Shown here piece by piece: positions 7,765-59,507 of a DNA stretch of 64,000 nt (the stretch's first letter is position 1; every line of letters starts with the position of its first letter). Origin of the DNA: an uncultured Candidatus Saccharibacteria bacterium. GTDB lineage: Bacteria > Patescibacteriota > Doudnabacteria > UBA920. The stretch spans positions 67,133 through 131,132 of the forward strand of contig CAZKVS010000001.1 of NCBI GenBank assembly GCA_964556325.1, read 5' to 3'. Both the position numbers and the translations under genes were made by a program. The notes beneath the pieces are model-generated. The model worked only from the letters and a program-made list of their open reading frames with translations, had not been told where the DNA came from and did no database searches.

Positions 7765-9429
7765 ATGTTACTCAACATAATTTTAATTGTAGACTTGGTC
7801 CTGCTGGCCATTATGGTGGGGGTGTATATTCATTACACCTTGCGTGAGCGTTATTTGCTGCAGGGTCAGGTTGGTCAAGCATATGAGCTCCAGCAGCGTA
7901 TATACCAAATTCAGGTGCTTAAGGAGATTGGGGAGCGTATTGGGTATTCGTTGGATACAAATAAAATCGTAGAAATTATTACCAGCAGCCTTGGGAGTTT
8001 ACTGGAGTACGATACCGTGTCGTACATGGTCTTGCAGGGACAGGGTGACCAGCTGGTGTTTAAGTGCCATGTCAATAACACCGTGACTCACGCGTTTTTG
8101 GGTGAAGTGCGGGAGAAAATGTTGTTGTCGGTAAGCGCTATCTTGGACCGGGATTTTAAACCGGAGCTGGTAGATGAAAGCGTGACGGGGAATATTTTAG
8201 ACGATAACCTCAAAGTAAGTCTAAAGTCCTATTTTAACTTGCCGGTTGTTATAGGCGATAAATTAGTAGGGCTTATTAATGTAGGTTCGCAAGTGCCCGG
8301 TCAGTATGGGGATGCACAGGCGTCTATTTTGTATTCTATTACCAACCAAGCCTCTACGGCTGTATCTAAGTTGCAAGCAGTGCTGGAGAGTGAAAAGGGT
8401 AAATTGGTTGCTGTCATAAACTCTATGACCGATGGGGTAGTCATGGTGGATATGCGTAACCAGGTGTTGGTATCTAACCCAGCTGTGCGAAGTCTGCTAG
8501 AGATTGCTGGTGGGCAAGACACAACTATGTATGATGTGGTGGACGCGCTGGCCGGCAAAGTAGATGTGCGGACTAAGATTGAGCAGGCCATTGGCACTAA
8601 GTCGCCCATTGTGATTAGTGGGGTACAGTTGAAAGACCATATGGTAGAGCTGACCATAACACCAGTACGAAGTCAACAAGGGGATCAGTTAGGTGCGGCG
8701 GTGGTGTTCCATGATATTACGACGGAAAAAGACTTAGAAAAGCTTCGTCAGGACTTTACGGCTATGATGGTGCACGAACTCCGTGCGCCATTAACTGCCG
8801 TACGCTGGTCCAGTGAGTCGTTGGGCAAAATGGCCGTACCCGGCGCGGCTATAGAACCTAAGAAAATAGAAGAAACAGCCCTCACTATAAGCTCAGCTTC
8901 TCGGAACATGCTGGAGTTGGTCAATGACTTGCTGGATGTAGCTAAAATTGAGGCTGGTAAGTTTGATTTGAACCTGCAAGAGTACGATATTGTCGCTATT
9001 ATTAAAGACCAGCTGCTTACCTTTAAGGCTTTGGCTGAGCAAAAGCGGCTGCAGTTGAGTGATACGCTTCCAGATAAATTTATGGTAAAATGTGACAAGG
9101 TTCGCATTTCTCAGGCTTTGGAGAACCTGCTGTCTAACGCTATAAAATACACGGACAGCGGCCAGGTTATGGTCACTCTCACTATAGACCAGCAGAACAA
9201 AAAAGCGACCGTGGCGGTGAAGGACTCTGGGGTGGGCGTCAGCCGAGAAGATATTTCGCAGCTGTTCTCCAAGTTCCGCCAGCTCAAAAATACTGATAAT
9301 GCTCGCAAGGGTACTGGTCTTGGGCTGGTGGTGAGTAAAGGTATTGTGGAGGCGCACGGCGGTCAAATTTGGGCGGAGAGCGCGGGCGACAACATGGGTA
9401 CGACTTTTTACTTTACATTACCATTATAA
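7765..9429 (+). CDS. Sensor histidine kinase (TM-GAF-PAS-HisKA-HATPase)
   Basis: N-terminal TM. H-box HELRAPLTAV. N-box LLSNAIKYT. G-boxes DSGVGV and GTGLGL. Confidence 0.85.
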   Translation: MLLNIILIVDLVLLAIMVGVYIHYTLRERYLLQGQVGQAYELQQRIYQIQVLKEIGERIGYSLDTNKIVEIITSSLGSLLEYDTVSYMVLQGQGDQLVFKCHVNNTVTHAFLGEVREKMLLSVSAILDRDFKPELVDESVTGNILDDNLKVSLKSYFNLPVVIGDKLVGLINVGSQVPGQYGDAQASILYSITNQASTAVSKLQAVLESEKGKLVAVINSMTDGVVMVDMRNQVLVSNPAVRSLLEIAGGQDTTMYDVVDALAGKVDVRTKIEQAIGTKSPIVISGVQLKDHMVELTITPVRSQQGDQLGAAVVFHDITTEKDLEKLRQDFTAMMVHELRAPLTAVRWSSESLGKMAVPGAAIEPKKIEETALTISSASRNMLELVNDLLDVAKIEAGKFDLNLQEYDIVAIIKDQLLTFKALAEQKRLQLSDTLPDKFMVKCDKVRISQALENLLSNAIKYTDSGQVMVTLTIDQQNKKATVAVKDSGVGVSREDISQLFSKFRQLKNTDNARKGTGLGLVVSKGIVEAHGGQIWAESAGDNMGTTFYFTLPL

Positions 9430-9433
9430 ATTA

Positions 9434-9568
9434 ACGCGATCCGAAATTACGAATACATGCGAATCTACGAATAAACTACGAGTGAGACACAGGTGTGTTT
9501 TAGTTCGTTGCTTCGTAGACTATTCGCAGATTCGAATCATTTGTAGTTTCGCATCGGATACATTCGTA
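9434..9568. repeat. Word-built intergenic palindrome (CGAAT words)
   Basis: cgcgatccgaaattacgaatacatgcgaatctacgaataaactacgag ... cttcgtagactattcgcagattcgaatcatttgtagtttcgcatcggatacattcgtat. Confidence 0.65.
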
Positions 9569-9569
9569 T

Positions 9570-9950
9570 ATGCCAAAGATTGTTATAGCAGAAGACGATA
9601 AGTTATTGTCCGGTTCTCTCGTAGGTGCCTTTACCGACGCGCATTTTGAAGTTTTTCCTGCCTACGACGGTGAGGAAGCCATAGCAAAAATTAAAGAAGT
9701 AAAGCCTGACGCAGTACTGCTCGACGTCATGATGCCGAAGCTAGACGGTATTGGCGTGCTCTGGGAGCTTAAGGCAAACCCTGATACTTCTGGAACACCT
9801 GTGGTTGTGCTGACTAACATGGCCGACATGGACACTATAGCCAAAATTATGGATGCGGGTGGAACCGACTACTTGCTGAAGAGTGACCAGTCCATAGATA
9901 AAATTATAGAAAAAGTGCAGCAGGTCATGGCCCGCGCAGCCGCTAAATAG
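9570..9950 (+). CDS. Stand-alone response-regulator receiver domain
   Basis: IVIAEDD ... LLDVMMPKLDG ... K near the C-terminus. No output domain. Confidence 0.8.
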   Translation: MPKIVIAEDDKLLSGSLVGAFTDAHFEVFPAYDGEEAIAKIKEVKPDAVLLDVMMPKLDGIGVLWELKANPDTSGTPVVVLTNMADMDTIAKIMDAGGTDYLLKSDQSIDKIIEKVQQVMARAAAK

Positions 9951-27436: not shown

Positions 27437-28312
27437 CTACGCGGTGAACAGCTGCGCCGGGAAGTTTGGAGACATGGTTACTGTAAAGTCGGATTGCAGA
27501 ATAAGATACTCAAAAGTGTAGTGTTTGAGCAGGGTGGCGGGTGGCACAAAAAACAAACAAGTCGAAAGCGCGTCGGCTAGTAGGGTGGTGTCGGCTATGG
27601 TCCAGAGTGCGGCTATGTGTGTGGGTGAGGTGAGGGAGTGCGGGTCAAGGATGTGATGAAAGTTGCCCCACGCTCGTCTGTTGCCAGCAGAACCGCAGAG
27701 GCTTTGGTTCATGATGTGCGCAATACCAATTACCTGACTCGTGTCTGCAGGGTTTTCTAAACCAACTTTCAGTGGTTCTGGCGCTTCGGTTCGGTGGCGC
27801 ATGTCTCCGCCGGCGTCTACGGTGTAGGTTTGTATCCCTGCTTGTTCTATGAGTTCGCTTACTATATCTATTAAATACCCCTTGCCCGCTGCACCCACAT
27901 CAATGAGCACGGGAAGTTTGGTTATAAGCGTGGGGTAGTTGTATATAAGTGCTTCATCCCAGGTGGGCGGAGCACTAAGCTTTTTTCCTTGAAGTGAATA
28001 GTGTGCGTCGTAGCCAGCGTCGCTTAATGCTTGGCCAATGAGTGGAGTAAACGCGCCGTTGGTAATGCGGTAAAGTGTGTGGTACAAGCCCAGCATGGGC
28101 TCTGCATCGCTCGGTAGCTGGTAGCTGCCCGGCGTGCGGGCCACTTCACTAATTAGCGAGTCAGGTCGAAAGCGGGAGTAGTGGGCGTCAAAAAGAGCAA
28201 TCCGCTCCATAATTTGTGTGTGCAAATTATCGGACTGCTCTTTTGTTATGACGTCGTGTATGTCTATGACCCAATGCGTGCCAATTGCTTCAAATGTATA
28301 TTGGGTTGGCAT
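27437..28312 (-). CDS. apbE: FAD:protein FMN transferase (ApbE family)
   Basis: ApbE-like fold with GAAGKGYLIDI and TYTVDAGGDM motifs. Confidence 0.7.
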   Translation of the reverse strand: MPTQYTFEAIGTHWVIDIHDVITKEQSDNLHTQIMERIALFDAHYSRFRPDSLISEVARTPGSYQLPSDAEPMLGLYHTLYRITNGAFTPLIGQALSDAGYDAHYSLQGKKLSAPPTWDEALIYNYPTLITKLPVLIDVGAAGKGYLIDIVSELIEQAGIQTYTVDAGGDMRHRTEAPEPLKVGLENPADTSQVIGIAHIMNQSLCGSAGNRRAWGNFHHILDPHSLTSPTHIAALWTIADTTLLADALSTCLFFVPPATLLKHYTFEYLILQSDFTVTMSPNFPAQLFTA

Positions 28313-28354
28313 TCCTGTATTATCTAATAACTAAGTACCCCGCCGAAGAGGCGA

Positions 28355-28843
28355 CTAAGCACTAATTTTTGCCTGAGTTTTAATTTGCTCTACGGCGTCA
28401 TTGAAACCTTTTGGTGTAAGCGAGGATCCGGATACTTTATCGAGTGTGACCTCGTTAATATTTTTTCCAACAACCATGCTTGTAAAGTTTTGGCTAAAAA
28501 CCAGTTGCATTTTTTTGGATATTGGCTGTACTGTTTGGGGTTGGGCGGTCGCGTTGGTTACTATACCGTCTTTTAACGTAAGAGTAATTTCAATAGTTTC
28601 AGCTCCGCCGGGGGAGTTATAGCTACCCATGGCCGTATAGGTTCCGTCTTTGTAGGTAGCGGTAGAGGTTGTGGTAGTTTGTTCGTTTGGAGTAGGTGTC
28701 GTGGTGTCCGTCGTTGTTGCAGTATCCTCTTCTTTACCGGAAAACTTTACTACTGCAAGTATGACAAGTACGACTACTACGCCCGCGGCTATAGCGAGGC
28801 CTGCTTTGCTGCTTTTTGGGGTTTCGGGTGTTTGTTCAGACAT
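28355..28843 (-). CDS. Membrane-anchored FMN-binding-domain protein (likely ApbE substrate)
   Basis: N-terminal TM, Thr-rich linker, FMN_bind-like domain with DKVSGSSLT, a Dxx(S/T)G(A/S)(S/T) flavinylation-type motif. Confidence 0.55.
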   Translation of the reverse strand: MSEQTPETPKSSKAGLAIAAGVVVVLVILAVVKFSGKEEDTATTTDTTTPTPNEQTTTTSTATYKDGTYTAMGSYNSPGGAETIEITLTLKDGIVTNATAQPQTVQPISKKMQLVFSQNFTSMVVGKNINEVTLDKVSGSSLTPKGFNDAVEQIKTQAKISA

Positions 28844-28915: not shown

Positions 28916-29428
28916 CTACATCATTTCCCCGGTTTTTATTTTTTCAATCAGTGGACCCGGTGTGCAGCGGAATAAGAAACCCTGGCCCATATCTATATCT
29001 TGCGTAGAGTGGTGTATGCGGTCGTGGGGTATGAGCGTCTCGGTTGCGGCAAAGGACTGCACAAAACTTTCGTACGATTCCGCCAACGGGTAGGCCTCTA
29101 TATGTTCAAACTTATCTGTTTGAGAGTGGTCGGGTTTTTGGTCAGAGAGTTCGAGCAGGGTAATGGGTCCTAGTGCTGTGGGTATACTGCGTCGGAGTTT
29201 TATGAGTGCAATGCGTCGGTTGGAAATAATGGACTGGTATATGTACTCACTATCGTGCTCAAACAGTGCGCGTATATGTTCAAATGTTTCCGCGCTGTCA
29301 CATTTGTAGTTTATGTGGTCTACCGCGGCTTTACCTGCTAGGGCGTGCTTAGCCACAAATGCATTAAAAAGTGAAATGTACGGCTCCGTTTTTGTGTAAA
29401 AGTCTTCAAGGGTGCTTATCTCAATCAT
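28916..29428 (-). CDS. Hypothetical protein
   Basis: 170 aa. No confident motif. Confidence 0.35.
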   Translation of the reverse strand: MIEISTLEDFYTKTEPYISLFNAFVAKHALAGKAAVDHINYKCDSAETFEHIRALFEHDSEYIYQSIISNRRIALIKLRRSIPTALGPITLLELSDQKPDHSQTDKFEHIEAYPLAESYESFVQSFAATETLIPHDRIHHSTQDIDMGQGFLFRCTPGPLIEKIKTGEMM

Positions 29429-30092: not shown

Positions 30093-30161
30093 ACTAGCTC
30101 TAGTATATCAAATAAAAATACCATGACTCTTTCAGGAGCCATGGTATTTGGATGCATATAC

Positions 30162-38380: not shown

Positions 38381-40024
38381 ATGGACGAAATAAAAATACG
38401 AGAAATATTGCTAAAAGAAGACTATGTTTCCGCAGCCGATTTAAAAACTGCCGAGGAGTATGCTAAAAGTCATAAGACCACTTTACTCGATGGTCTTCTG
38501 TCTTTGCAGTTAATTACCAAAGATTTACTGCACCAAGCAATTGCCGAGTTTTTGGGCATGGCTTTTATAGACTTGACTGCAAAGCCGCCGGATAAAAAAG
38601 ATATACTCAGTATTCCGAAAGCTTTGGCGGAAAAAGAAAAAATAATTTTGTACAAGCAAACTTCCAAAGAGGCTACCATCGTTTCTGGTGGGGTTGTGTC
38701 TCCCGAAGCCTTGGCAGAACTGCAGAACCTTTTTGTAAATAAAAAAATAAGTGTTGTCTACGCTGATCCAGAAGCAATTGCACTCGCGATGATGCAGTAT
38801 CGGCCGGCACTTGAAACTCGATTTGGCGAAATTATCAAAGCCGGTGGAAAGGTTGCTCCGGAAATAATCGATCAAATTCTAGACGACGCACTTGCTTTGC
38901 GTGCGTCCGATATCCACTGCGAGCCGCAAGGTGCTGACGTACTTATTCGTTTTAGGATTGACGGAGTATTGCATGAAGCTGGACGAGTACCGAAAGAACA
39001 TTACGAAAACATTGTGAACCGGATTAAGGTGCAGGCCAAGCTGAGAATTGATGAACACTTGGCGAGTCAAGACGGTGCTATCCATTTTAGTGGCACACAT
39101 CATCAGGCAGACCTGCGGGTTTCAATTGTACCCACACTAGACGGTGAAAAAGTGGTTATTCGGGTTTTGGCAGAGTATGTTCGAGACTTTTCTCTCACAG
39201 ATATAGGGTTATCGGCGGAGGATCAACAAACGGTTGTGGAGGCCGCTCATAAACCGTTTGGTATGGTATTGGTGACTGGTCCTACTGGCAGCGGAAAGAC
39301 TACTACGTTATATTCCTTAGTCAAACTGTTAAACGACACGCAAGTTAACATAACCACTATTGAAGACCCGGTTGAGTATAAAATTACCGGCATAAACCAA
39401 ATTCAGGTAAATACTGTAAGCAATTTAACTTTTGCCAAAGGTCTGAGGGCAATAGCCAGGCAAGACCCCAATATTATTTTGGTGGGTGAAATCCGAGATT
39501 TAGAAACGGCGGATATAGCGGTCAACGCAGCGTTAACTGGTCACTTATTACTTTCCACTTTTCACGCCAACGACTCTGCTGCTGTAATGCCAAGGCTTTT
39601 AAACATGGGCATTGAGCCATTTTTACTTTCATCGACTCTGGAATTGATAGTGGCCCAGCGCTTGGTAAGGAAGATATGTGAAAGTTGTCGGTTCACTCAG
39701 AGCGTTACTCTGGACGACATTATAAAGTTGCTGCCACGTGCGAAAGAATATTTTTCAGAAAGTTCCGTAACGCTCTATAACGGTAAAGGGTGTGGTGCGT
39801 GCTCTCAGACTGGCTATAAAGGTCGTTTGGGTTTGTTCGAGTTTTTAAAAGTCACGCCAGAAATGTCCGACTTAATTTTGGCTAACCCTTCGAGTAAACA
39901 AATTTGGCAATTAGCAAAATCCCAAGGCTGTCGAAGTTTGTTTGAAGATGGTATACAAAAAGTTAAAGCGGGACACACGACGTTGGAAGAGTTATTGAGA
40001 GTGGTAAAACCTAAAGATTTATAA
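38381..40024 (+). CDS. pilB: Type IV pilus assembly ATPase PilB (GspE family)
   Basis: N-terminal GSPII_E_N repeats, Walker A VLVTGPTGSGKTTTLYS, Asp/His boxes, C-terminal tetra-Cys (CESC...CGAC). Confidence 0.9.
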   Translation: MDEIKIREILLKEDYVSAADLKTAEEYAKSHKTTLLDGLLSLQLITKDLLHQAIAEFLGMAFIDLTAKPPDKKDILSIPKALAEKEKIILYKQTSKEATIVSGGVVSPEALAELQNLFVNKKISVVYADPEAIALAMMQYRPALETRFGEIIKAGGKVAPEIIDQILDDALALRASDIHCEPQGADVLIRFRIDGVLHEAGRVPKEHYENIVNRIKVQAKLRIDEHLASQDGAIHFSGTHHQADLRVSIVPTLDGEKVVIRVLAEYVRDFSLTDIGLSAEDQQTVVEAAHKPFGMVLVTGPTGSGKTTTLYSLVKLLNDTQVNITTIEDPVEYKITGINQIQVNTVSNLTFAKGLRAIARQDPNIILVGEIRDLETADIAVNAALTGHLLLSTFHANDSAAVMPRLLNMGIEPFLLSSTLELIVAQRLVRKICESCRFTQSVTLDDIIKLLPRAKEYFSESSVTLYNGKGCGACSQTGYKGRLGLFEFLKVTPEMSDLILANPSSKQIWQLAKSQGCRSLFEDGIQKVKAGHTTLEELLRVVKPKDL

Positions 40025-40025
40025 C

Positions 40026-41162
40026 ATGCCTCAGGTAAAAATTCGTAAACGTCAGATTGAAGAAGACTATGAAGCACAACCGCCTTTTGCGTTTCATTCG
40101 GGCTGGCCGTACTTTACTGTTGGCTTTGGTGACGAGATAGACTACTTTGTGGAGAATTTGAGCATTATGATAGCTTCGGGTATGGGTGTAACCGCGGCTT
40201 TGGCTGGCATTAAAGTCGGTACTAAAAACCGGAGTTTAAAAAAGAACATAGCAGTCATAGAACAAATGATTGCCGATGGTTTTCCGCTTTGGAAAGCCTT
40301 TGAGCGCACTCAATTTTTACCCTCTCGAATAATTGCCTTAGTAAAATCGGGTGAAGAATCGGGTCGTTTACCTGAGCACCTCAATTTAGTTACTATCCAA
40401 CAGCATAAAGAACGAATTTTTGTTTCCCGTATACGCTCCGCATTGCTGTATCCGGGTATTGTGCTCGCGTTGGCCTTTGTGGTTGCGGTGGGCAGCGCGT
40501 GGGTCACGCTCCCACGGCTAATTACAGTTTTTAATGAAATTCACACGAGTTTGCCACCCACCACTAGAATGATTATTTGGTTGGGGAATTTTTTGGCCCA
40601 CTACGGCAGTTTCGCAGTTCCCCTCACTCTGTTCGGGGCTGGAGTACTCGTATATGCAATATTTTTTTATACTAAAACTAAAATTGTAGGGGAGTATATT
40701 ATATTATTTTTACCGGGAATAAATAAGCTCATCCAAGGTGTAGAGTTGGCGCGCTTTGGCTATATATTTGGCGCCTTGCTTTCTGCGGGTATTCACATAG
40801 AGGAAGCCATGAGTTCCGTTCGTGAGGGGACTAGCTTTGTATCGTATAGAAAATTCTACGTATTTTTGCAAGACGGCATAAGCCAAGGCAATTCATTTAG
40901 TACCATCTTTGCCGGATATGCACACTCAGATCGCTATATTCCGGCGCCTATGCAAAAACTTATTATTGCTGCTGAGCAAAGTGGTAAATTGCCGGAGACC
41001 TTACTAAAAATTGGCCAAATTTTTGAAGAAAAAACTGAAACCATGAGTCAGGATTTATCTACTATTTTAGAGCCAATAGTTTTAATTGTTGTAGGAATTT
41101 TTGTAGGCTTTATTGTATTAGGTTTAATTAGCCCAATATATGGACTTTCAAGCCAGATATAA
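40026..41162 (+). CDS. pilC: Type IV pilus platform protein PilC (GspF family)
   Basis: Two T2SSF-like repeats and three TM segments. Confidence 0.85.
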   Translation: MPQVKIRKRQIEEDYEAQPPFAFHSGWPYFTVGFGDEIDYFVENLSIMIASGMGVTAALAGIKVGTKNRSLKKNIAVIEQMIADGFPLWKAFERTQFLPSRIIALVKSGEESGRLPEHLNLVTIQQHKERIFVSRIRSALLYPGIVLALAFVVAVGSAWVTLPRLITVFNEIHTSLPPTTRMIIWLGNFLAHYGSFAVPLTLFGAGVLVYAIFFYTKTKIVGEYIILFLPGINKLIQGVELARFGYIFGALLSAGIHIEEAMSSVREGTSFVSYRKFYVFLQDGISQGNSFSTIFAGYAHSDRYIPAPMQKLIIAAEQSGKLPETLLKIGQIFEEKTETMSQDLSTILEPIVLIVVGIFVGFIVLGLISPIYGLSSQI

Positions 41163-41589
41163 CACGCAGGGTTTTAGTCTTATCGAAGTTATGGTTGTGG
41201 TCGGGCTTTTAGCGTTGTTCGCTGGAGCTGTTGGGCCCGTGTACCGAACAGTACAAACCAAGACAAATTTAGATATTGCTGTTGCGGGGGTAGCTTCAGC
41301 GTACAGGCGGGCACAGGCAGCGTCTCAGTCGGGCAACGCTGATGCTAATTGGGGAGTAAAATTTTTTACGACTCATACTGTTGTATTTGCGGGGAACAGT
41401 TATGCAGTAAGGCAAGCTTCCTATGACGAAAAACTAGATTTCCCGGATGACACAACTGTTTCTGGAAATACTGAAGTTGTGTTTACTAAATTTACCGGAT
41501 TACCACAAGCTACTGGAACTACAACAGTAACGAACTCTTTTGGCAGTAAAAACCTCATTGTAAATGCACAAGGAACTGTTACGTACTAA
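41140..41589 (+). CDS. Type IV pilin-like protein (prepilin N-terminal methylation domain)
   Basis: Leader MDFQARYNTQG then FSLIEVMVVVGLLALFAG (G|F, with E5). Confidence 0.7.
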   Translation: MDFQARYNTQGFSLIEVMVVVGLLALFAGAVGPVYRTVQTKTNLDIAVAGVASAYRRAQAASQSGNADANWGVKFFTTHTVVFAGNSYAVRQASYDEKLDFPDDTTVSGNTEVVFTKFTGLPQATGTTTVTNSFGSKNLIVNAQGTVTY

Positions 41590-43747
41590 AAAAGAAACTG
41601 GTTTTTCTGTGGCCGAGGTGGTTATTGCCGCGGCCGTGTTGACTATTTTCATTACGGGGATTACTTCTGCTTTGGTTGCTCTGGGCAGAAATATTAACTC
41701 CTCTGGCCACAAAGCACAAGCAGTGTTGTTGGCTGAAGAAGCCTTGGAAGGCTCGCGTAACATTCGCGACGCGGCTTTTTCTAATCTTATTGACGGAACA
41801 TATGGTATGGCCACGGCTAGTAACCAGTGGAACTTTTCCGGCAGCTCAGATGTAAACGGCATTTATACAAGGCAAACAACTGTTTCTACAGTCAGCGCCA
41901 ACCAAAAACAAATATCATCCACCGTTTCTTGGCGACACGGTGCAGCGTTAAACCGCAGTGTTACTGTATCAACGTACCTAACTAACTGGCTTACGAGCCT
42001 GGCAAGGGGAGGATTATTAGCCTATGGTAATGGCGGCACAACGCTCGACAGTATTTTTTATCGTGTACTAAATAACACCGGTAATTGGTCAGCTGCAGCC
42101 CAAGCAGCAGATATAGATGCTGGTACGAGTAATCGGGCTTTGCGTGCTGTGAGGGTTTACGCGTCGGCTACTCGAAATGAAAAAGTCTTAATTTCCCGAC
42201 ATTACAACGGGACTACTCAATACGTGTACGCGCAAGTGTATAACGGCTCCAGTTGGGGTAATGTGCAATTGCTTTCAAGCTGGACAGCCGGAACTTTTCT
42301 AGATGTGCAAAATTTTGACGGCACATATTTAGCAAATGGCAGTTTCATGGTAATTTTTTCTGATAATACAATTATTCCTAAAATGAGAACCTGGAATGGG
42401 TCTGTGTGGTCTGCTCAAAGCTCTCTCACTACCTTAGGCGCCGGCGCTATACCAAACTATGTAGTGGCTAAAGCTCGTTCGGGTAGCAATGAAGTAATGG
42501 CGGCATTTTTTACACAAAATTCTAGAACAATTAGTGAATATTATAACGGTAGCGCCTGGTCGGCAATTACATCACATGCGGCAGCTGCGCCGGTTAATAC
42601 AACTAGGTTTGTAGATTTTGCCTGGAGTCCAAACAATGCTTTAAAAGGCGGTTTGGTATATTCCACCGGAGCTGCCGACAGGGCTTTGCATATAAAAATT
42701 TGGACAGCGAATGGTTTGGGTAGTGGGAGTTGGAGTGCTGTAGCCAATACTGCGAATCAAGGAGTTGGGTCAACGAGGCTGGGGGCAGTGTCTATTGTGG
42801 GTCGGCCGGGAGCAGATGAATTTATTGCCTGTAACAAAAATACCAGCCTGCAAATTATCTGCTACAAAAGTACTTTTACCCCTACGTGGACTAACCCAAC
42901 TAACCAAAGCCTAACCGCGACCACCAATGCAGGAATACAGCGTCCATTTCATATGGGTTTTGAATCGGTGTCCGGTGACCCCGCTATTGGCGTTTATTCC
43001 GACGCGACTGCTACGCCAAAACTAAAAAAGTATACAGCTTCAAGCTCCACGTGGGACGCTTCCGCTACCAGCTTAAATACTTTATTAGCTTCTTTAGCTT
43101 CGGTAAAAGTAATACCCGCTCCAACCACCAATGATATTTTGGTGTTGCTTGGAGACACAAATGCAGATCTCTATTCCACTATTTGGGATGGAACCAATAA
43201 TGTAATATATTCGCCACCCTTGGGAAATACTTCCATAGAAAGTAACTTGGATTCCAATACAGTTGGGAGAGCTGAAAGCTTTTTTGCTACTGCTACTGCC
43301 AGTGGCACTATAAATAGTATCAGTGTGTTCCTTGAATCAACTTCTACATCAACAAATTTAGTAGCTGGATTATATACAAACTCTGGGGGGAGCCCAGGAA
43401 CCCTGCTCTCACAAGGGAGTAGCTCTACTTTGATAAATGGAGCATGGAACACTATTGCTATTCCTTCAGTTACTCTAACTTCCGGTACAAGTTATTGGAT
43501 ATCTATTTTAGGCACGGCTGGCGGAGTTCCTAGATTTAGGGACAGAAGCGGGGGCCCTTGTAATAGTGAAACAAGTGCCTCTACAACGTTAACTTCATTG
43601 CCGGCATCCTGGACCACTGGCACTGTATTTACGACTTGTCCTTTGTCAGCTTATGTCAGTGGGAATGGTAATTCTTTTACACCTCACGGTATCAGTGGCT
43701 CCGCTACTACTGATTATTGGTACGATTTTGCTTGGGACGTATTTTAG
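41564..43747 (+). CDS. Giant pilin-like protein (prepilin N-terminus + ~690 aa Ser/Thr/Gly/Asn-rich beta-rich domain)
   Basis: Leader ...KKETG then FSVAEVVIAAAVLTIF. The rest is low in charge and rich in S/T/G/N/W, like an adhesin. Confidence 0.65.
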   Translation: MHKELLRTKKETGFSVAEVVIAAAVLTIFITGITSALVALGRNINSSGHKAQAVLLAEEALEGSRNIRDAAFSNLIDGTYGMATASNQWNFSGSSDVNGIYTRQTTVSTVSANQKQISSTVSWRHGAALNRSVTVSTYLTNWLTSLARGGLLAYGNGGTTLDSIFYRVLNNTGNWSAAAQAADIDAGTSNRALRAVRVYASATRNEKVLISRHYNGTTQYVYAQVYNGSSWGNVQLLSSWTAGTFLDVQNFDGTYLANGSFMVIFSDNTIIPKMRTWNGSVWSAQSSLTTLGAGAIPNYVVAKARSGSNEVMAAFFTQNSRTISEYYNGSAWSAITSHAAAAPVNTTRFVDFAWSPNNALKGGLVYSTGAADRALHIKIWTANGLGSGSWSAVANTANQGVGSTRLGAVSIVGRPGADEFIACNKNTSLQIICYKSTFTPTWTNPTNQSLTATTNAGIQRPFHMGFESVSGDPAIGVYSDATATPKLKKYTASSSTWDASATSLNTLLASLASVKVIPAPTTNDILVLLGDTNADLYSTIWDGTNNVIYSPPLGNTSIESNLDSNTVGRAESFFATATASGTINSISVFLESTSTSTNLVAGLYTNSGGSPGTLLSQGSSSTLINGAWNTIAIPSVTLTSGTSYWISILGTAGGVPRFRDRSGGPCNSETSASTTLTSLPASWTTGTVFTTCPLSAYVSGNGNSFTPHGISGSATTDYWYDFAWDVF

Positions 43748-43759
43748 AAATGGAAAAAT

Positions 43760-44287
43760 ATGAATCCTAAATTAGGAATACATCGCACACATACGCAGGT
43801 TGGTTTTACCCTTATAGAAATGCTGGTCTATACCGCACTGTTTGCGTTAATGGTTTCGGCGTTGGTGGCGTTTATGAGTACGTTGTCTCAAAGTCGGATA
43901 CGTAACCAGGCCGTGCTGGAGGTGAATGACCAGGCTGCGCAGGTTATGCGGGTTATTACTCAAAATGTACGCAATGCCACGTCTGTAAGTTCCCCCAGCA
44001 TTGGCACTTCGGGGAGCTCGCTTTCTGTTAATACAGTTTTACCCGCTACTACTCCTACCACGTTTACGGTGTCGGGCGGTACTTTATACATTACCCAGGG
44101 TTCAGGTGGGGCTGTGGCGCTGACTAACAACAGAGTAGCCGTAAGTAATGTATTATTTTCCAATTTGTCGAGGGCTTCAACGTTCGGTACGGTGAGAGTG
44201 AGCTTTACTCTACGGAGCGTCTCTTCTGCAACTCAGGCGCAATATAACTATTCAGCAAATTTTTATGGTACGGGTACTCTACGATAA
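43760..44287 (+). CDS. Type IV pilin/pseudopilin
   Basis: MNPKLGIHRTHTQVG then FTLIEMLVYTALFALMV. Confidence 0.7.
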   Translation: MNPKLGIHRTHTQVGFTLIEMLVYTALFALMVSALVAFMSTLSQSRIRNQAVLEVNDQAAQVMRVITQNVRNATSVSSPSIGTSGSSLSVNTVLPATTPTTFTVSGGTLYITQGSGGAVALTNNRVAVSNVLFSNLSRASTFGTVRVSFTLRSVSSATQAQYNYSANFYGTGTLR

Positions 44288-44669
44288 AAGTTATACAGGA
44301 TTTGTAACGCTCTATAGCGTGATAATTTTGGGCTCGATTGGTTTAGTCCTGGTTGCAGCATTGGCCGCTACAAGCATATGGGTTATTCGTACGAGTGGTG
44401 ATGACAAAAATTCTGCTCAGGCACGCAAGGCTGCGGATAGTTGTGTGGAACTAGCCTTGCAAGCTATGCACGATAGCAATAGCTTTACTGGCAGTGGCAA
44501 TGCTTCCGTTGGTGGCGCAACGTGTACTTATGTAGTGACCAACACCGGTGGGAATAACCGCACTGTGGGTGCTACAGGCACAGTTGGTGCCCTGGTACGT
44601 AGAGTTTCTGTTACAACTACTGCCTTTACTCCTTCCCTTACTGTTTCTAGCTGGCAAGAAGTGCCTTAG
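44265..44669 (+). CDS. Minor pilin-like protein (PilX-like, lacks E5)
   Basis: Hydrophobic N-terminus (GFVTLYSVIILGSIGLVLVAALA), then an S/T/G-rich domain. Overlaps the previous gene by 23 nt. Confidence 0.4.
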   Translation: MVRVLYDKSYTGFVTLYSVIILGSIGLVLVAALAATSIWVIRTSGDDKNSAQARKAADSCVELALQAMHDSNSFTGSGNASVGGATCTYVVTNTGGNNRTVGATGTVGALVRRVSVTTTAFTPSLTVSSWQEVP

Positions 44670-44699: not shown

Positions 44700-46958
44700 A
44701 TGAAACAATTCCCTAAAAAAATATTTACCACCACCGTCCGAGAATCGGAACTAGTTGCCCAAGGTGTTAAGAAGCTCACTCTGCAACCAGCTGAGGATTT
44801 CTCCTTTACTCCCGGGCAATATGTGTGGGTGGAAATTCCTACACTTAAAATTGGTGATCCTGCGGGTAACAGAAAAGCATTTTCTATTTGCAGTCTTCCA
44901 AACTCTCAAAACACTTTTTCGGTTGTAGCCAGAGAAAGTGCAAGCGGTTTTAAAAAAGCGTGGTTTGCGCTGAGCCCCGGGGATACGGTAATAACTCATG
45001 GTCCATTTGGTTCAAGCTTTGGTATACATGAGCACTTTCCAAAGAATATAGTTATGATTGCCGGAGGGGTGGGCGTCGCGCCTTTCTTGCCAGTCATTGA
45101 GCTAATACAAAAACGGGCCTTACCCATACGGTGTATTCTTATCTATCTTGACAAAACAGAAGAATCTACCCCGTTTCTCTCTGAACTTGAGCAGCTACAA
45201 AATACAAACAGTTTTTTTGAATATCGTGCAGTGTATGACTATTTTTCATGGGGGTATATAAAAACTAAGTACGAAAATCTAACAGGCGCTACTGAGTGGT
45301 GGGTGTCTGGTTCACAGAAGATGGTTGAGTATGTGTATGCCGAGTTGTCAAAAGGTGGGGTGGCGCGGGAACACATGGTTTTTGAAAATTATTACCCAAG
45401 TTCAAAAGACAACTTAAACATAGAGCAGGTGAGAGAGCAAATGCAGAAAGAGGGTTTACTTACCCAGGCCATACAAAACTCCACTAACCATACAATAATT
45501 ACCGACTCCAACGGTATTGTGTTGTTTGCAAACAAAGCTGCTGAAAAAATAACTGGTTATTCGCAGGCCGAAATTTTGGGGAATACCCCCCGGTTGTGGG
45601 GCGGTATGATGGATCCGGCTTTTTATAAAGATTTTTGGCAGAAAAAGAGGTCCGGCCAGTCGTTTGAAGGTGAGATGACTAATCGTCGAAAAAACGGCGA
45701 GCTGTATCATACCATAGCCCACATTGCGCCAATTTTCGGAACAAGCAAAGAGATTATTGGTTTTATTGGCACCGAAGAAGATGTCACCAGTCTAAAGAAA
45801 CAGGAAGAAAAAATACTTCAGGATAAATTAAAAGATGAAGCTATTTTAAGTAGCATTGGAGAAAGCGTTATAGCAACCGACAATACGGGTAAGGTTGTGT
45901 TTGCAAACCAAACTGCTCTAGACTTGTTTGAGCAGCCTGAAGAAATAGTATTTAATAAAAAAATTTGGGACATTCTTATTTTAGTCGATGCTAAGGGAGG
46001 GTTAATTACAGAAGCGAGTCGTCCTATGAAGTTGGCATTAACTACAGGAAAGAAGATTATAACTTCTGAGTATTGTTTTTACAACGAAAACAACAAAAAG
46101 AAAATTGTAGTGGCTATTACTGCGACTCCTGTAATTTTAGATGGCTCTATTATTGGAGCAATAGAAATTATCCGCGATATTACAAAAGAAAAAGAAATAG
46201 ATCAAGCCAAAACTGAATTTGTCTCTCTAGCTAGTCACCAACTGCGTACGCCGCTTTCGGCAATAAATTGGTATACAGAAATGCTCCTTGCCGGAGACGC
46301 AGGAAAACTAAATGATGAGCAGGAGAAATATCTTAAAGAGGTGTACACAGGTAATCAACGCATGGTGGAATTGGTTAACGCACTGCTAAATGTGTCTCGC
46401 TTAGATTTGGGAACCTTTGTCATTGAACCAAAGCCGACTGATGTTTTAGCGTTGGCAAAAAGCGTACTTGGCGAATTGCAGCCGCTCATTACGCAAAAGC
46501 AATTAACTGTTACAGAACATTTTAGTCAAGGCATTCCCCAGTTCAATGCAGATGAAAAATTACTTCGCATGGTGTTCCAAAACTTGTTGTCTAACTCTGT
46601 AAAATACACCTTACTTAAAGGTTCTGTAACGGCTGACGTTACCGTGGTATCTAAAGATGAAATGTTTGGTGGTAAAAAAGTTGCGGTGGACAGCTTGGCT
46701 ATTTGTGTATCCGATTCCGGTATGGGCATTCCCACTGCGCAGCACGCTAAAATTTTCTCAAAGTTATTTCGAGCCGACAATGCTATGGAAACAGAGGCTG
46801 AGGGCACGGGGCTAGGTTTGTATATTGTAAAATCAATCGTTGACCAGTCAGGTGGAAAGATTTGGTTTAAGTCGGAACAAGATAAAGGAACTGAATTTTA
46901 TGTATTATTTCCCATAACTGGTATGAAGTCAAAAGATGGTTTAAAGAAGCTTGAATAA
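44700..46958 (+). CDS. Hybrid sensor histidine kinase with an N-terminal FNR-like FAD/NAD(P)H-binding oxidoreductase domain, PAS repeats, HisKA and HATPase
   Basis: RKAFSICS (RxYS-type FAD motif), MIAGGVGVAPFLP (GGxGxxP NAD motif), two PAS segments, H-box LASHQLRTPLSAI, G-boxes DSGMGI and GTGLGL. Confidence 0.75.
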   Translation: MKQFPKKIFTTTVRESELVAQGVKKLTLQPAEDFSFTPGQYVWVEIPTLKIGDPAGNRKAFSICSLPNSQNTFSVVARESASGFKKAWFALSPGDTVITHGPFGSSFGIHEHFPKNIVMIAGGVGVAPFLPVIELIQKRALPIRCILIYLDKTEESTPFLSELEQLQNTNSFFEYRAVYDYFSWGYIKTKYENLTGATEWWVSGSQKMVEYVYAELSKGGVAREHMVFENYYPSSKDNLNIEQVREQMQKEGLLTQAIQNSTNHTIITDSNGIVLFANKAAEKITGYSQAEILGNTPRLWGGMMDPAFYKDFWQKKRSGQSFEGEMTNRRKNGELYHTIAHIAPIFGTSKEIIGFIGTEEDVTSLKKQEEKILQDKLKDEAILSSIGESVIATDNTGKVVFANQTALDLFEQPEEIVFNKKIWDILILVDAKGGLITEASRPMKLALTTGKKIITSEYCFYNENNKKKIVVAITATPVILDGSIIGAIEIIRDITKEKEIDQAKTEFVSLASHQLRTPLSAINWYTEMLLAGDAGKLNDEQEKYLKEVYTGNQRMVELVNALLNVSRLDLGTFVIEPKPTDVLALAKSVLGELQPLITQKQLTVTEHFSQGIPQFNADEKLLRMVFQNLLSNSVKYTLLKGSVTADVTVVSKDEMFGGKKVAVDSLAICVSDSGMGIPTAQHAKIFSKLFRADNAMETEAEGTGLGLYIVKSIVDQSGGKIWFKSEQDKGTEFYVLFPITGMKSKDGLKKLE

Positions 46959-47382
46959 ATTAATGAGTAAACATATGTCTATGTCAAACGAAGATAAGGT
47001 GGTATTAGTGCTCGAAGACGAGCGGCCTTTGCTAGAGGCTATAAAATTAAAACTAGAAAAAAATAGTTTTGAGGTGGTAACGGCTCGAACTGTGGAGCAG
47101 GCAAAACAGTACGTTGACGATTTAGTAAAGGTAGATGTTATTTGGCTGGATCATTACCTCCTTGGTAAGGAGAACGGGTTAGATTTTGTGGCTTGGTGCA
47201 AGGAAGAAAATAATGCTAAGTGCAAAAACATTCCTATATTTGTAGTTTCAAACACCGCCAGCGCAGATAAAGTTTCTACGTACATGCGTCTCGGTGCAAA
47301 AGAATATTTTGTGAAGTCAAACCATCGGCTAGATGAAATTGTAAAAGCAATTGCTGACTATTTAAACAAGGGGATTGAATAA
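46951..47382 (+). CDS. Stand-alone response-regulator receiver domain
   Basis: VVLVLEDE ... IWLDHYL ... K. Confidence 0.7.
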   Translation: MNKLMSKHMSMSNEDKVVLVLEDERPLLEAIKLKLEKNSFEVVTARTVEQAKQYVDDLVKVDVIWLDHYLLGKENGLDFVAWCKEENNAKCKNIPIFVVSNTASADKVSTYMRLGAKEYFVKSNHRLDEIVKAIADYLNKGIE

Positions 47383-47391
47383 TAACTTATT

Positions 47392-47784
47392 ATGGAAAAT
47401 AAAAAGACAATTTTGGTGGTGGAAGTTGTAGAAGATGAGGCACCACTCCGAAATGCACTTGTAGAAAAATTATCTCGTGAAGGATTCTCAGTCTTAAACG
47501 CAAAAAATGGCGAAGAGGGATTACAAACAGCTTTGTCTAATCACCCGAACTTAATATTGCTTGACATTATAATGCCAAAAATGAATGGATTAGAAATGTT
47601 AGAAAAGTTGAGAGCCGATGCCTGGGGTAAAACAGCACACGTGATAATGCTTACTAACCTAAGCGACAACGAAAAAATTGCCGAAGCAATGCATAGCCAC
47701 GCCTTTGATTATTTTGTGAAGTCTGATATTAAAATTCAAGAAGTAGTAGATAAAATAAAAGAAAAGTTATTGCATAAAGCATAG
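47392..47784 (+). CDS. Stand-alone response-regulator receiver domain
   Basis: ILVVEVVEDE ... LILLDIIMPKMNG ... K. Confidence 0.8.
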   Translation: MENKKTILVVEVVEDEAPLRNALVEKLSREGFSVLNAKNGEEGLQTALSNHPNLILLDIIMPKMNGLEMLEKLRADAWGKTAHVIMLTNLSDNEKIAEAMHSHAFDYFVKSDIKIQEVVDKIKEKLLHKA

Positions 47785-55381: not shown

Positions 55382-56848
55382 ATGATGAATAAAAATCAAT
55401 CTCCTTGGTTGGATCAAATGGTTCGGACTAGACCAGGCATACGTCTTGCGCAAAATATGGAAGTGGATACAGCCATTATTGGTGGGGGTATTGCGGGTGT
55501 GGCAACGGCGTACTTTACCTTGGCGCATACGGACCACACGGTTGCTTTGCTGGAAATGGGGAAAGTGGCACATGGCGCTACGGGGCACAACGGCGGGTTT
55601 TTGGCTACGTACTTTGAGCGGAGTTTTATTAGTATTGTCAGAGAATTTGGTTTGGAGCTGGCTACTCGAGGGCAGCGCGACGTTGAATCGGCGTGGGAGT
55701 TGTTGGAGGATATGCGGGACACTGCTCAACTGAAGACGCCCATTTGGATTTTTACCGGGTACGCTGCCATTGCTACGGAGGAAGAACTTTTAATTCACTT
55801 GCGAAATTTAGCTCTCCGGGCGAAGGCAGGGTTGGAGGTTATACCACTATTGGTGGCTGAGGACGCTCTGTATATACCCCATATTCCGGATGTGTATCAA
55901 GACTTGTATAGACTTATTCCCCGTGTAGAGTTGGCGGAGCTCTTAGAAGTTAAAGACTCCGCTTATTTTGCGGCTTTGCCGGAGAAGAAAGGTTGTATGA
56001 ATAGTGCGGCATTTTGCGAGGAGCTGGTGCAGTATATGTTAGTTACTTATCCGGACCGGTTTACGTTACTTGAGCATACACCAGTGGAAGAAATTCGGCT
56101 GCAGGCAAACAGTGCTGTGGTATATGCCGGCGAGTTTACTGTTCAGTCCAAGCGGGTAGTGTTATGTACGAATGGTTTTGAGAATGTGCGCATAGTAAAT
56201 ACAGTAGGGCCAGACATAAACAAAAAGTTCCATCATTTAGTACGAGGTATAGTGGGCTATATGGCTGGTTACGTAGAGGCTTCCGAACGACCGCCTGTAG
56301 AAATTAGTTTTTTGCCAAAAAGCGCCCGTAAGGGGGACGATGTATTCTCCGAAGAACCCTATTTTTACTTGACTCGTAGACCATTTGGACAGGTAGATGA
56401 GAAGCCGCAAAACTTAATATCTATTGGCGGGCCGGAAGCTTTAATGGATGACACCAATGACTATACGTTGGACCATGACTATCCAGCACAAGCCAAACAA
56501 GACATAGACACATTCTTACAGACTACATACGCGCAAGCTCACCCGGAAGGAGAGGAGTATAAGTTTCTATGGCATGGGCTTATGGGTTTTACGCCAAATG
56601 GTATTCGCTTAGTCGGTCCAGAGCCGTTAAACCCTGTGCTGCTTTATAACTTAGGTTGTAACGGTGTGGGGCTTATGCCTTCCATCTTTGGCGGTCGCAA
56701 AATAGCTCGGTTTCTCGCCGGAGAAGTTTTGCCTCCTTCTATGTTTGACCCTGTAGACCAGCGTACGTCTGAAGCACGGCCAAGCATCCCATTGCGTACG
56801 GTGCAAGATCGATCTAATAATGCAGCGCGCCAAGGGCGTAACGTGTGA
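55382..56848 (+). CDS. FAD-dependent oxidoreductase (DAO family)
   Basis: DTAIIGGGIAGVATAY dinucleotide-binding motif. C-terminal GCNGVG. Confidence 0.7.
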   Translation: MMNKNQSPWLDQMVRTRPGIRLAQNMEVDTAIIGGGIAGVATAYFTLAHTDHTVALLEMGKVAHGATGHNGGFLATYFERSFISIVREFGLELATRGQRDVESAWELLEDMRDTAQLKTPIWIFTGYAAIATEEELLIHLRNLALRAKAGLEVIPLLVAEDALYIPHIPDVYQDLYRLIPRVELAELLEVKDSAYFAALPEKKGCMNSAAFCEELVQYMLVTYPDRFTLLEHTPVEEIRLQANSAVVYAGEFTVQSKRVVLCTNGFENVRIVNTVGPDINKKFHHLVRGIVGYMAGYVEASERPPVEISFLPKSARKGDDVFSEEPYFYLTRRPFGQVDEKPQNLISIGGPEALMDDTNDYTLDHDYPAQAKQDIDTFLQTTYAQAHPEGEEYKFLWHGLMGFTPNGIRLVGPEPLNPVLLYNLGCNGVGLMPSIFGGRKIARFLAGEVLPPSMFDPVDQRTSEARPSIPLRTVQDRSNNAARQGRNV

Positions 56849-58748: not shown

Positions 58749-59507
58749 TTGAAAGACATGGGACTGGTAGCATCTGTCCGTCCTAAAGCGAGTGTCACTA
58801 TGGCAGTGTTTGTACTGGCCGGCATGCACTTTTCCCGTCAACCTATTTCTTGGTTTGTGGTTTGCATGGTGTTGTTCATCGCTATGTTTGCGATGAGCTG
58901 GAATGACCTTTATGATCGGGCGGCAGACCGGCAAAAAGGAAAAATGTATGCATGGGAACATCCCAAACGACTGACCGCATTGGTTTCAGTTCTAGCCGTC
59001 ATTTCGTTCTCAATGACACTATTTGCGTTTACTCTCAGGACAGGGTTCGGATGTCTTGGCGTGGCTATATGGTTTAGCTCGGCCATATATCCATTTTTGC
59101 AAACCCGACCATGCATAAAGAATGTGACTGTTGCGCTTACCGTTGGGGCAACTGTCCTTTTCCCACTGTGTGTACAATTTTCTGCTGCTCAGTGGTTACT
59201 GTTTTGTTCCTTATGTTTATTGACGTCTGCTCGAGAGTTTTTGGGAGATGTTGATGGCGTGCGTGTTGAACAGTTCTACAAACGAACTGCCGCGATGGTA
59301 TGGGGTGTTCCTCGCTCCAAGAACGTTGCAGCAACGTTACTCATTGCATCATCGTTGGTGGCCTTTTTGTGGCCAGCCTTTTTGCTCGCCGCTATTCCGA
59401 CTCTTGTAGGAGCAGTTCTGCTCCTTGTTAACAAGAACTATGCTGTGGCTCGGTTGTTGTTAGAGCTTTCCCTGGTAGGTTGGGGAGTGGCGGCCTATAT
59501 GTCTTAA
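58749..59507 (+). CDS. UbiA-family prenyltransferase-like membrane protein
   Basis: NDLYDRAADRQKGK (NDxxDxxxD). Seven to eight TM helices. Confidence 0.55.
   Translation: MKDMGLVASVRPKASVTMAVFVLAGMHFSRQPISWFVVCMVLFIAMFAMSWNDLYDRAADRQKGKMYAWEHPKRLTALVSVLAVISFSMTLFAFTLRTGFGCLGVAIWFSSAIYPFLQTRPCIKNVTVALTVGATVLFPLCVQFSAAQWLLFCSLCLLTSAREFLGDVDGVRVEQFYKRTAAMVWGVPRSKNVAATLLIASSLVAFLWPAFLLAAIPTLVGAVLLLVNKNYAVARLLLELSLVGWGVAAYMS

Follow-up and report, generated by a model that had tools for sequence, protein, structure and literature searches.

The locus described here lies in a 64-kb stretch of DNA (64,000 nucleotides, hereafter the window) on contig CAZKVS010000001.1 from an uncultured bacterium of the candidate phyla radiation (CPR, Patescibacteria). 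It consists of two neighbouring open reading frames (ORFs) within positions 27437-28843, both on the minus strand, the coordinates being the same as in a preliminary description of this DNA. The first gene of the pair (28843-28355) encodes a single-domain, membrane-tethered protein of 162 amino acids (aa) of the FMN_bind type, which is NqrC/RnfG-like and the predicted substrate of its neighbour. The second gene, apbE (28312-27437), encodes a flavin adenine dinucleotide (FAD):protein flavin mononucleotide (FMN) transferase of the ApbE family with 291 aa. A spacer of only 42 nt (28313-28354) lies between them. The preliminary description had placed apbE before the FMN_bind gene; the two are indeed adjacent, but transcription runs from the FMN_bind gene into apbE. 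Very probably both products form an enzyme-substrate pair.

Classification of the larger protein as an ApbE, already proposed from the translation, is borne out by a match to PF02424 with 126.7 bits (E 1.5e-36; cut-off 25.6), which spans residues 11-262 and profile positions 2-252 of 266. ApbE structures in the PDB are matched with E-values of 4.5e-11 and weaker, and the protein was aligned to those of E. coli and Pseudomonas. Ser208, His220 (27653-27655) and Asp247, plus Thr251, align with E. coli ApbE and are conserved to at least 97 % across 121 ApbE sequences of the clade. The active centre of the V. cholerae enzyme comprises Ser241, His257 and Asp285, a Ser-His-Asp centre is likewise described for Listeria FmnB, and an Mg-binding A-D-A-x-x-T region is known (PMC12052999). 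Ser208, His220 and Asp247 of the window protein are regarded as the catalytic residues because they are equivalent to this Ser-His-Asp centre.

The smaller protein starts with a hydrophobic helix at about residues 13-33 (28745-28807, minus strand), which is seen in the structural model and is classed as a signal-anchor, followed by a disordered linker rich in Thr, Pro and Ser at about residues 34-62 (28658-28744, minus strand; pLDDT <50). The earlier picture of a transmembrane (TM)-anchored protein with a Thr-rich linker is therefore correct. Both elements are family traits: a hydrophobic N-terminal segment is found in 120 of 120 homologues (mean KD19 2.66), and the linker has a median length of 33 residues with 20 % Thr. 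The C-terminal part matches PF04205 (FMN_bind) with 18.0 bits and E 0.0047 over profile positions 4-74 of 77. Among 43 homologues 25 reach E ≤0.01 with this profile (best 6.6e-6) and no other family recurs, while a precomputed PF04205 match is carried by only 7 of 120. The predicted structure has the expected fold, in which helices accompany a three-stranded sheet and the acceptor residue precedes the last helix. An FMN_bind-type domain had been claimed before; for this single sequence the strict Pfam check fails narrowly, whereas the tests at family level and the fold agree with the claim. On this family-level evidence the small protein is assigned to the FMN_bind domains, as one whose acceptor motif is a variant. 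Low-complexity or borderline matches (NCBIfam PplA, Pfam DUF2953, New_glue and similar) were set aside, and a search of the full-length profile against PDB sequences returned nothing but spurious matches to TM and linker segments (C99, FliL).

The putative flavinylation motif noticed earlier, DKVSGSSLT, occupies residues 135-143 (28415-28441, minus strand; D135-K-V-S-G-S-S141-L-T143), with the codon of the predicted acceptor Ser141 at 28421-28423. Alignment confirms the conservation of this Ser: K136, V137, S140, S141 and L142 are invariant across the 43 homologues, SGSS is present in 114 of 120, and the site sits 18-21 residues from the C-terminus. Compared with the canonical D-x-x-[S/T]-G-A-[S/T], the window sequence D-K-V-S-G-S-S keeps the Asp, the Ser at −3, the Gly at −2 and the acceptor Ser, and has Ser at −1. 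A profile of the domain alone aligns 'DKVSGSSLTPKGF' with 'DAVSGATYTSAGY' of PDB entry 8p2a, so that SGSS falls on SGAT of 8p2a_A. Ser141 is the predicted FMN acceptor since this alignment sets the invariant residue on the flavinylated Thr of 8p2a. One further member of the family, P0241 (440 aa), contains three tandem domains in which GGAS or GQAS replaces SGSS; it may be a multi-flavinylated protein.

Gene order in related genomes also speaks for a functional couple. Two family-specific peptide patterns were scanned against the GTDB species representatives, which gave 376 loci, and the best 80 of these were fetched. Their records bear names of CPR/Patescibacteria groups or generic labels such as 'uncultured Gammaproteobacteria', and one is labelled Kapaibacterium; the closest among these 80 belongs to a Candidatus Doudnabacteria metagenome-assembled genome. 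In 78 of the 80 loci the next gene downstream of the homologue is apbE, in the same orientation and with gaps from −13 to +198 nt. As these loci are independent, the pairing cannot be due to chance. When the neighbouring ORFs were clustered, one more gene proved to recur; its product of about 505 aa joins an NqrB/RnfD-like membrane domain (PF03116) to an NAD(P)H reductase of the FNR-like type (FAD_binding_6 and NAD_binding_1). This third gene follows apbE directly in 50 of 76 evaluable loci and is located elsewhere in the locus in 4 (together 54 of 76); within about 8 kb it is absent from the remaining 22. An alignment of 50 such fusion proteins displays TEPxTxP as well as the FNR-type motifs RxF(T/S) and GGxGxxP, and a conserved [ST]G[AS][ST] flavinylation site is absent from it. 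The term 'orphan', used for the pair in the preliminary description, has to be given up in view of these frequencies; the two genes rather represent the conserved core of a published NQR/RNF-like system. The components of such a system can also be dispersed in one genome, as seen on the 1.3-Mb contig CAZDOJ010000001.1 (loci L029 and L087), where the FMN_bind gene stands alone at about 490 kb and apbE together with the NqrB-FNR gene at about 345 kb, approximately 140 kb apart.

Some of these loci contain additional genes. A subclade with all three genes (L016, L018, L043, L047, L052, L059, L064) has an ECF-sigma-like gene, a gene for a multi-pass membrane protein and one for a small secreted protein 1-2 kb upstream of the FMN_bind gene. 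MsrA-like and MsrB-like genes, recognised by sequence motifs only, occur within 8 kb in six loci each.

Taken together, the two genes in the window are likely to be a dedicated ApbE-substrate couple that makes up the core of an NQR/RNF-like electron conduit of the CPR, with the membrane reductase encoded elsewhere or replaced. ApbE would take the FMN moiety of FAD and esterify it to Ser141, the last Ser of the invariant SGSS, a variant of [S/T]-G-A-[S/T]. The NqrC/RnfG-type domain would be held on the outer face of the membrane by the N-terminal helix and a Thr-rich tether of about 30 residues. In most relatives the fusion of the NqrB/RnfD-like domain and the cytosolic FNR-like FAD/NAD(P)H domain would take electrons from NAD(P)H and pass them through the membrane to the covalent FMN, which would then hand them to some external acceptor. 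For the window organism the third gene would have to lie elsewhere in the genome, or another partner would act instead, because it is neither adjacent nor present within the 64 kb. The previously suggested link to extracellular electron transfer is an inference from membership of this family; an acceptor, a quinone-linked dehydrogenase or a cytochrome is not found in the window.

Several observations weigh against this interpretation. The literature search yielded no biochemical test of any family member and no paper naming both ApbE and Patescibacteria. The PF04205 match of the window protein is below the gathering score of 22 bits, and the domain-only profile gives non-significant matches to PDB sequences, 8p2a being the top one with E 0.21. 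The motif departs from the canonical form, with Ser for Ala at −1 nearly throughout the family, and the canonical Asp at −6 is retained in only 61 of 120 homologues. The window ApbE lacks a signal peptide, a lipobox or a TM segment, which is in conflict with FMN attachment outside the cell. Finally, tblastn with five fusion proteins detected no NqrB/RnfD-FNR gene in the window; their sole match fell on the FNR-like N-terminal part of a PAS histidine kinase (44700-46958). Among about 50 window ORFs scanned with Pfam there is no Rnf/Nqr subunit, cytochrome, DoxX or DsbD, tblastn found no homologues of DoxX and DsbD_TM, and the checked ORFs not covered by Pfam are free of CxxCH motifs. The earlier remark that no Rnf/Nqr genes are nearby thus applies to all 64 kb. 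The third gene is also absent over about 20 kb in four close relatives (L081-L084), and it was not found on two contigs of 10.4 kb and 2.1 kb, out of three bearing exactly the window ApbE, the third being of the 50-200 kb class. The identical ApbE is present on contigs of SRR12762285 and GCA_020047435.1.

Relatives whose ApbE is 80-91 % identical share the local order alpha/beta hydrolase, YecM, FMN_bind, ApbE and LigT. In comparison with a 91 %-identical relative that is likewise without the third gene, the FMN_bind gene has a dN/dS of 0.12 and apbE one of 0.10, with dS values of 0.39-0.48. Both genes are under purifying selection despite having no adjacent partner, and the idea of a decaying remnant was rejected on account of dN/dS values of about 0.1. 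In one of the relatives, L084 (Logan DRR438487; ApbE 80 % identical), the FMN_bind gene (9346-9835) is frameshifted into an ORF for the TM segment and linker (9346-9573) and one for the domain (9626-9835), and the spacer to apbE measures 165 nt; this split gene is either a pseudogene or an assembly error. In a tree of ApbE sequences the window groups with the pair-only loci L001, L048, L069 and L036, and other pair-only loci are scattered over the tree.

Alternatively, the pair of this lineage may work with a different partner altogether, as a surface flavoprotein reduced by another membrane protein or by reductants from the host or the environment, in a modular family with several electron sources. 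The position of the window in a clade of loci without the third gene, the 22 loci of this type and the selection acting on both genes without an adjacent partner all fit this alternative. Candidates for alternative partners are possibly provided by the pair-only loci themselves. A gene for a DoxX-family membrane protein is found directly upstream of the FMN_bind gene in the sister loci L048 (7430-7915), L069 (7508-7918) and L036 (2618-3094), and in L013 (6038-7824) a DsbD_TM protein and a secreted thioredoxin/AhpC-like protein are encoded at this place; flavinylation systems with DsbD-like proteins have been described (PMC8238504). However, the window itself contains no DoxX, DsbD_TM or other recognisable membrane redox protein, and as gene dispersal within one genome is documented, absence of the reductase gene from 64 kb says little. 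A different partner is considered a minority option, clearly behind the NQR/RNF-like conduit.

The second question concerns the side of the membrane on which the flavin is attached. The substrate domain is very likely located outside, as judged from two sequence features. K and R residues are biased to the N-terminal flank of the helix (2.60 vs 1.94 on the other side; 68 proteins favour N-in, 25 the opposite and 27 are neutral), and in five orthologues that are likewise paired with apbE a lipoprotein signal peptide is present (LSGC, LTGC, VAGC, VSGC). The enzyme, by contrast with this substrate, is leaderless throughout: a signal peptide, a lipobox, a TM segment and a hydrophobic N-terminus (max KD19 1.12 among 120 homologues) are absent from ApbE in these 120 homologues and in 75 loci, including ApbEs paired with lipoprotein substrates. 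A longer window ApbE with a hidden signal peptide is ruled out by an in-frame TAG seven codons upstream of the ATG and is also contradicted by the short intergenic gaps in the 78 loci. ApbE is typically a periplasmic lipoprotein, and leaderless ApbEs are cited only in connection with cytosolic substrates (2025 review of ApbE). Of the 'extracytosolic flavinylation' put forward in the preliminary description, the outer position of the domain is well supported, but the leaderless enzyme makes the site of attachment insecure.

The ApbEs of L065, L067, L077, P0156, P0175, P0148 and P0239 have a short polybasic N-terminal extension (e.g. MPSAKSSSKPKPP) instead of a signal peptide, which may attach them to the membrane from inside; no such extension is present in the window ApbE. 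Export of a pre-folded flavoprotein by the Tat pathway was set aside as unlikely, since a twin-arginine motif occurs in 0 of 120 substrate N-termini. The options left for attachment are modification in the cytoplasm before Sec export, export of ApbE by an unrecognised route, or an inward topology of the TM-anchored members. A clade-wide cytoplasmic attachment, with the C-terminal SGSS being modified by the leaderless ApbE while the signal-anchored or lipoprotein precursor has yet to pass through Sec, is put forward as a tentative idea that we hold to be rather doubtful than probable; this route is not described in the literature searched. If true, a surface flavoprotein could be loaded without exporting FAD or ApbE. 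Should it be confirmed, the combination of a leaderless ApbE and an exported substrate would bear on a question still open in the field, namely the way in which extracellular substrates come together with FAD and ApbE.

In another arrangement both proteins would act on the cytoplasmic side, with the FMN_bind domain facing inward and flavinylated there by the leaderless ApbE, much as fumarate reductase is by the cytoplasmic ApbE of Klebsiella pneumoniae. Beside the leaderless ApbEs of the window, the 120 homologues and the 75 loci, it is in line with documented cytosolic ApbEs acting on cytosolic substrates (PMC12052999) and with a positive-inside bias that is only moderate. The lipoprotein signal peptides of the five orthologues, however, export the domain, and tethers rich in Thr, Pro and Ser are typical of surface proteins, so that this topology is judged improbable. 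Still less credible, to the point of being nearly dismissed, is the view that the small protein is no flavoprotein and merely has a generic likeness to the alpha+beta sandwich of IscU/SufU with an SGSS serving another purpose: Foldseek ranks IscU/SufU first in the PDB, with all E-values above 0.01, and the Pfam score is below the cut-off, but the family is almost free of cysteine (0.07 per protein), for which reason an Fe-S scaffold was rejected, the invariant motif pairs with SGAT position by position in the alignment, and the coupling to apbE in 78 of 80 loci would be left without other obvious rationale.

Both genes are probably co-transcribed. The spacer contains an AGGA sequence resembling a Shine-Dalgarno element 5 nt ahead of the ATG of apbE, and a weak terminator-like hairpin (28352-28337) that is not above shuffle expectation. 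A promoter-like site about 77 nt upstream of the start of the FMN_bind gene (28920-28947, minus strand) is a match to the consensus only; as the count of such sites is not above shuffle expectation either, it is no more than a candidate. A strong terminator-like hairpin of 14 pairs followed by a T-run (30116-30149, minus strand) is situated just after a gene for a secreted protein of 268 aa. The transcription unit holding the pair probably starts downstream of this hairpin, at the alpha/beta-hydrolase gene or in the AT-rich spacer before the FMN_bind gene.

Other genes with a relation to redox processes are few in the window. The histidine kinase mentioned above, a sensor of 752 aa encoded on the plus strand, begins with an FNR-like NAD-binding region (Pfam NAD_binding_1, E 4.9e-5) which is 23-33 % identical to the FNR half of the NqrB-FNR fusions; two PAS domains, HisKA and HATPase_c come after this region. 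Its gene comes right after a type IV pilus cluster (38381-44669) and precedes two response-regulator genes (46951-47382 and 47392-47784); the product may be a kinase that senses NAD(P)H or the redox state. No further flavin- or quinone-related genes were recognised apart from those for a DAO-family FAD-dependent oxidoreductase (55382-56848) and a UbiA-family prenyltransferase (58749-59507), both on the plus strand, and a link between these two and the pair is not established.

The family of the small protein is large. It comprises 922 clusters at 90 % identity, and a profile search yields 3,333 clusters at 50 % identity, of which 2,674 reach E ≤1e-10; members occur in no fewer than 376 GTDB species representatives from many CPR lineages. 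In a census of 2021, which required a Pfam match and a predicted signal peptide, 127 genomes were counted and flavinylation was called 'strikingly underrepresented' in the CPR (PMC8238504); the two narrow peptide patterns by themselves already reach 376 loci in the GTDB species representatives. This under-representation is probably in part a detection artefact: with substrates under the Pfam threshold, as the 7 precomputed PF04205 matches among 120 homologues illustrate, and with ApbEs devoid of signal peptides, most of these pairs would be missed by the filters of the census. If attachment does take place in the cytoplasm, any census that combines signal peptides and Pfam matches has under-counted CPR flavinylation. 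Very few redox enzymes can be recognised in members of the CPR/Patescibacteria. One of the few candidates for a link between these organisms and external acceptors or host-derived redox substrates is thus a conserved module with a surface flavoprotein.

Among the flavinylated proteins of known structure, SaFMN3 and CbFMN4 (PDB 8p2a and 8p2b; PMC10339131) are multi-flavinylated, whereas the window protein has a single domain, a membrane anchor and SGSS. The cytoplasmic ApbE of Klebsiella pneumoniae shares the lack of a signal peptide with the window enzyme; its substrate, however, is a soluble cytoplasmic fumarate reductase, in contrast to the signal-anchored substrate of the window with orthologues that have a lipoprotein signal (PMC12052999). 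The FmnB/PplA system of Listeria monocytogenes resembles the pair in its monoderm-type envelope, in the ApbE-family transferase FmnB and in the surface-tethered FMN_bind protein PplA. FmnB and PplA are both lipoproteins, unlike the window ApbE, which has no signal, and PplA possesses two FMN_bind domains. The NCBIfam model of PplA matches just the low-complexity linker of the window protein (15.8 bits against a cut-off of 325), and none of the genes for extracellular electron transfer of the Listeria type (Ndh2, EetA/B, DmkA/B, FmnA) is present among the window ORFs scanned.

The differences to the ion-translocating complexes Na+-NQR and Rnf are larger. The window protein is shorter than NqrC and RnfG (162 aa vs about 200-260 aa) and has SGSS in place of SGAT, no genes for NqrA, D, E, F or RnfA, B, C, E are present in the window, and a system of this kind would perform one-way electron transfer instead of ion pumping.

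The closest counterpart is the NQR/RNF-like system, which was defined by a flavinylation cluster together with a fusion of NqrB/RnfD (PF03116) and an NqrF-type NAD-binding domain (PF00175), with the CPR named as one of its two main host groups (Méheust 2021, eLife, PMC8238504). A study from 2024 in mSystems presented an AlphaFold-multimer model of the two-subunit complex, in which the membrane subunit does not possess the flavinylation Thr of NqrB/RnfD (PMC11334425). The resemblance covers a membrane-anchored FMN-binding subunit of the NqrC/RnfG type encoded with ApbE, the PF03116::PF00175 fusion in 54 of the 76 homologous CPR loci and a membrane subunit without the flavinylation Thr. On the other hand, the FMN_bind domain of the window family is mostly under the Pfam threshold, its ApbE is leaderless, and neither the window nor the contigs of the close relatives contain the defining fusion gene. 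The pair is homologous to the NqrC/RnfG-plus-ApbE part of this system, yet it falls short of the definition of a full member, as the fusion gene is missing from the available sequence. Variant features of the known system may be seen in the SGSS motif, the leaderless ApbE and a membrane partner that can be detached. The window adds one more instance, with the twist that the pair is kept under selection without its usual membrane partner beside it.

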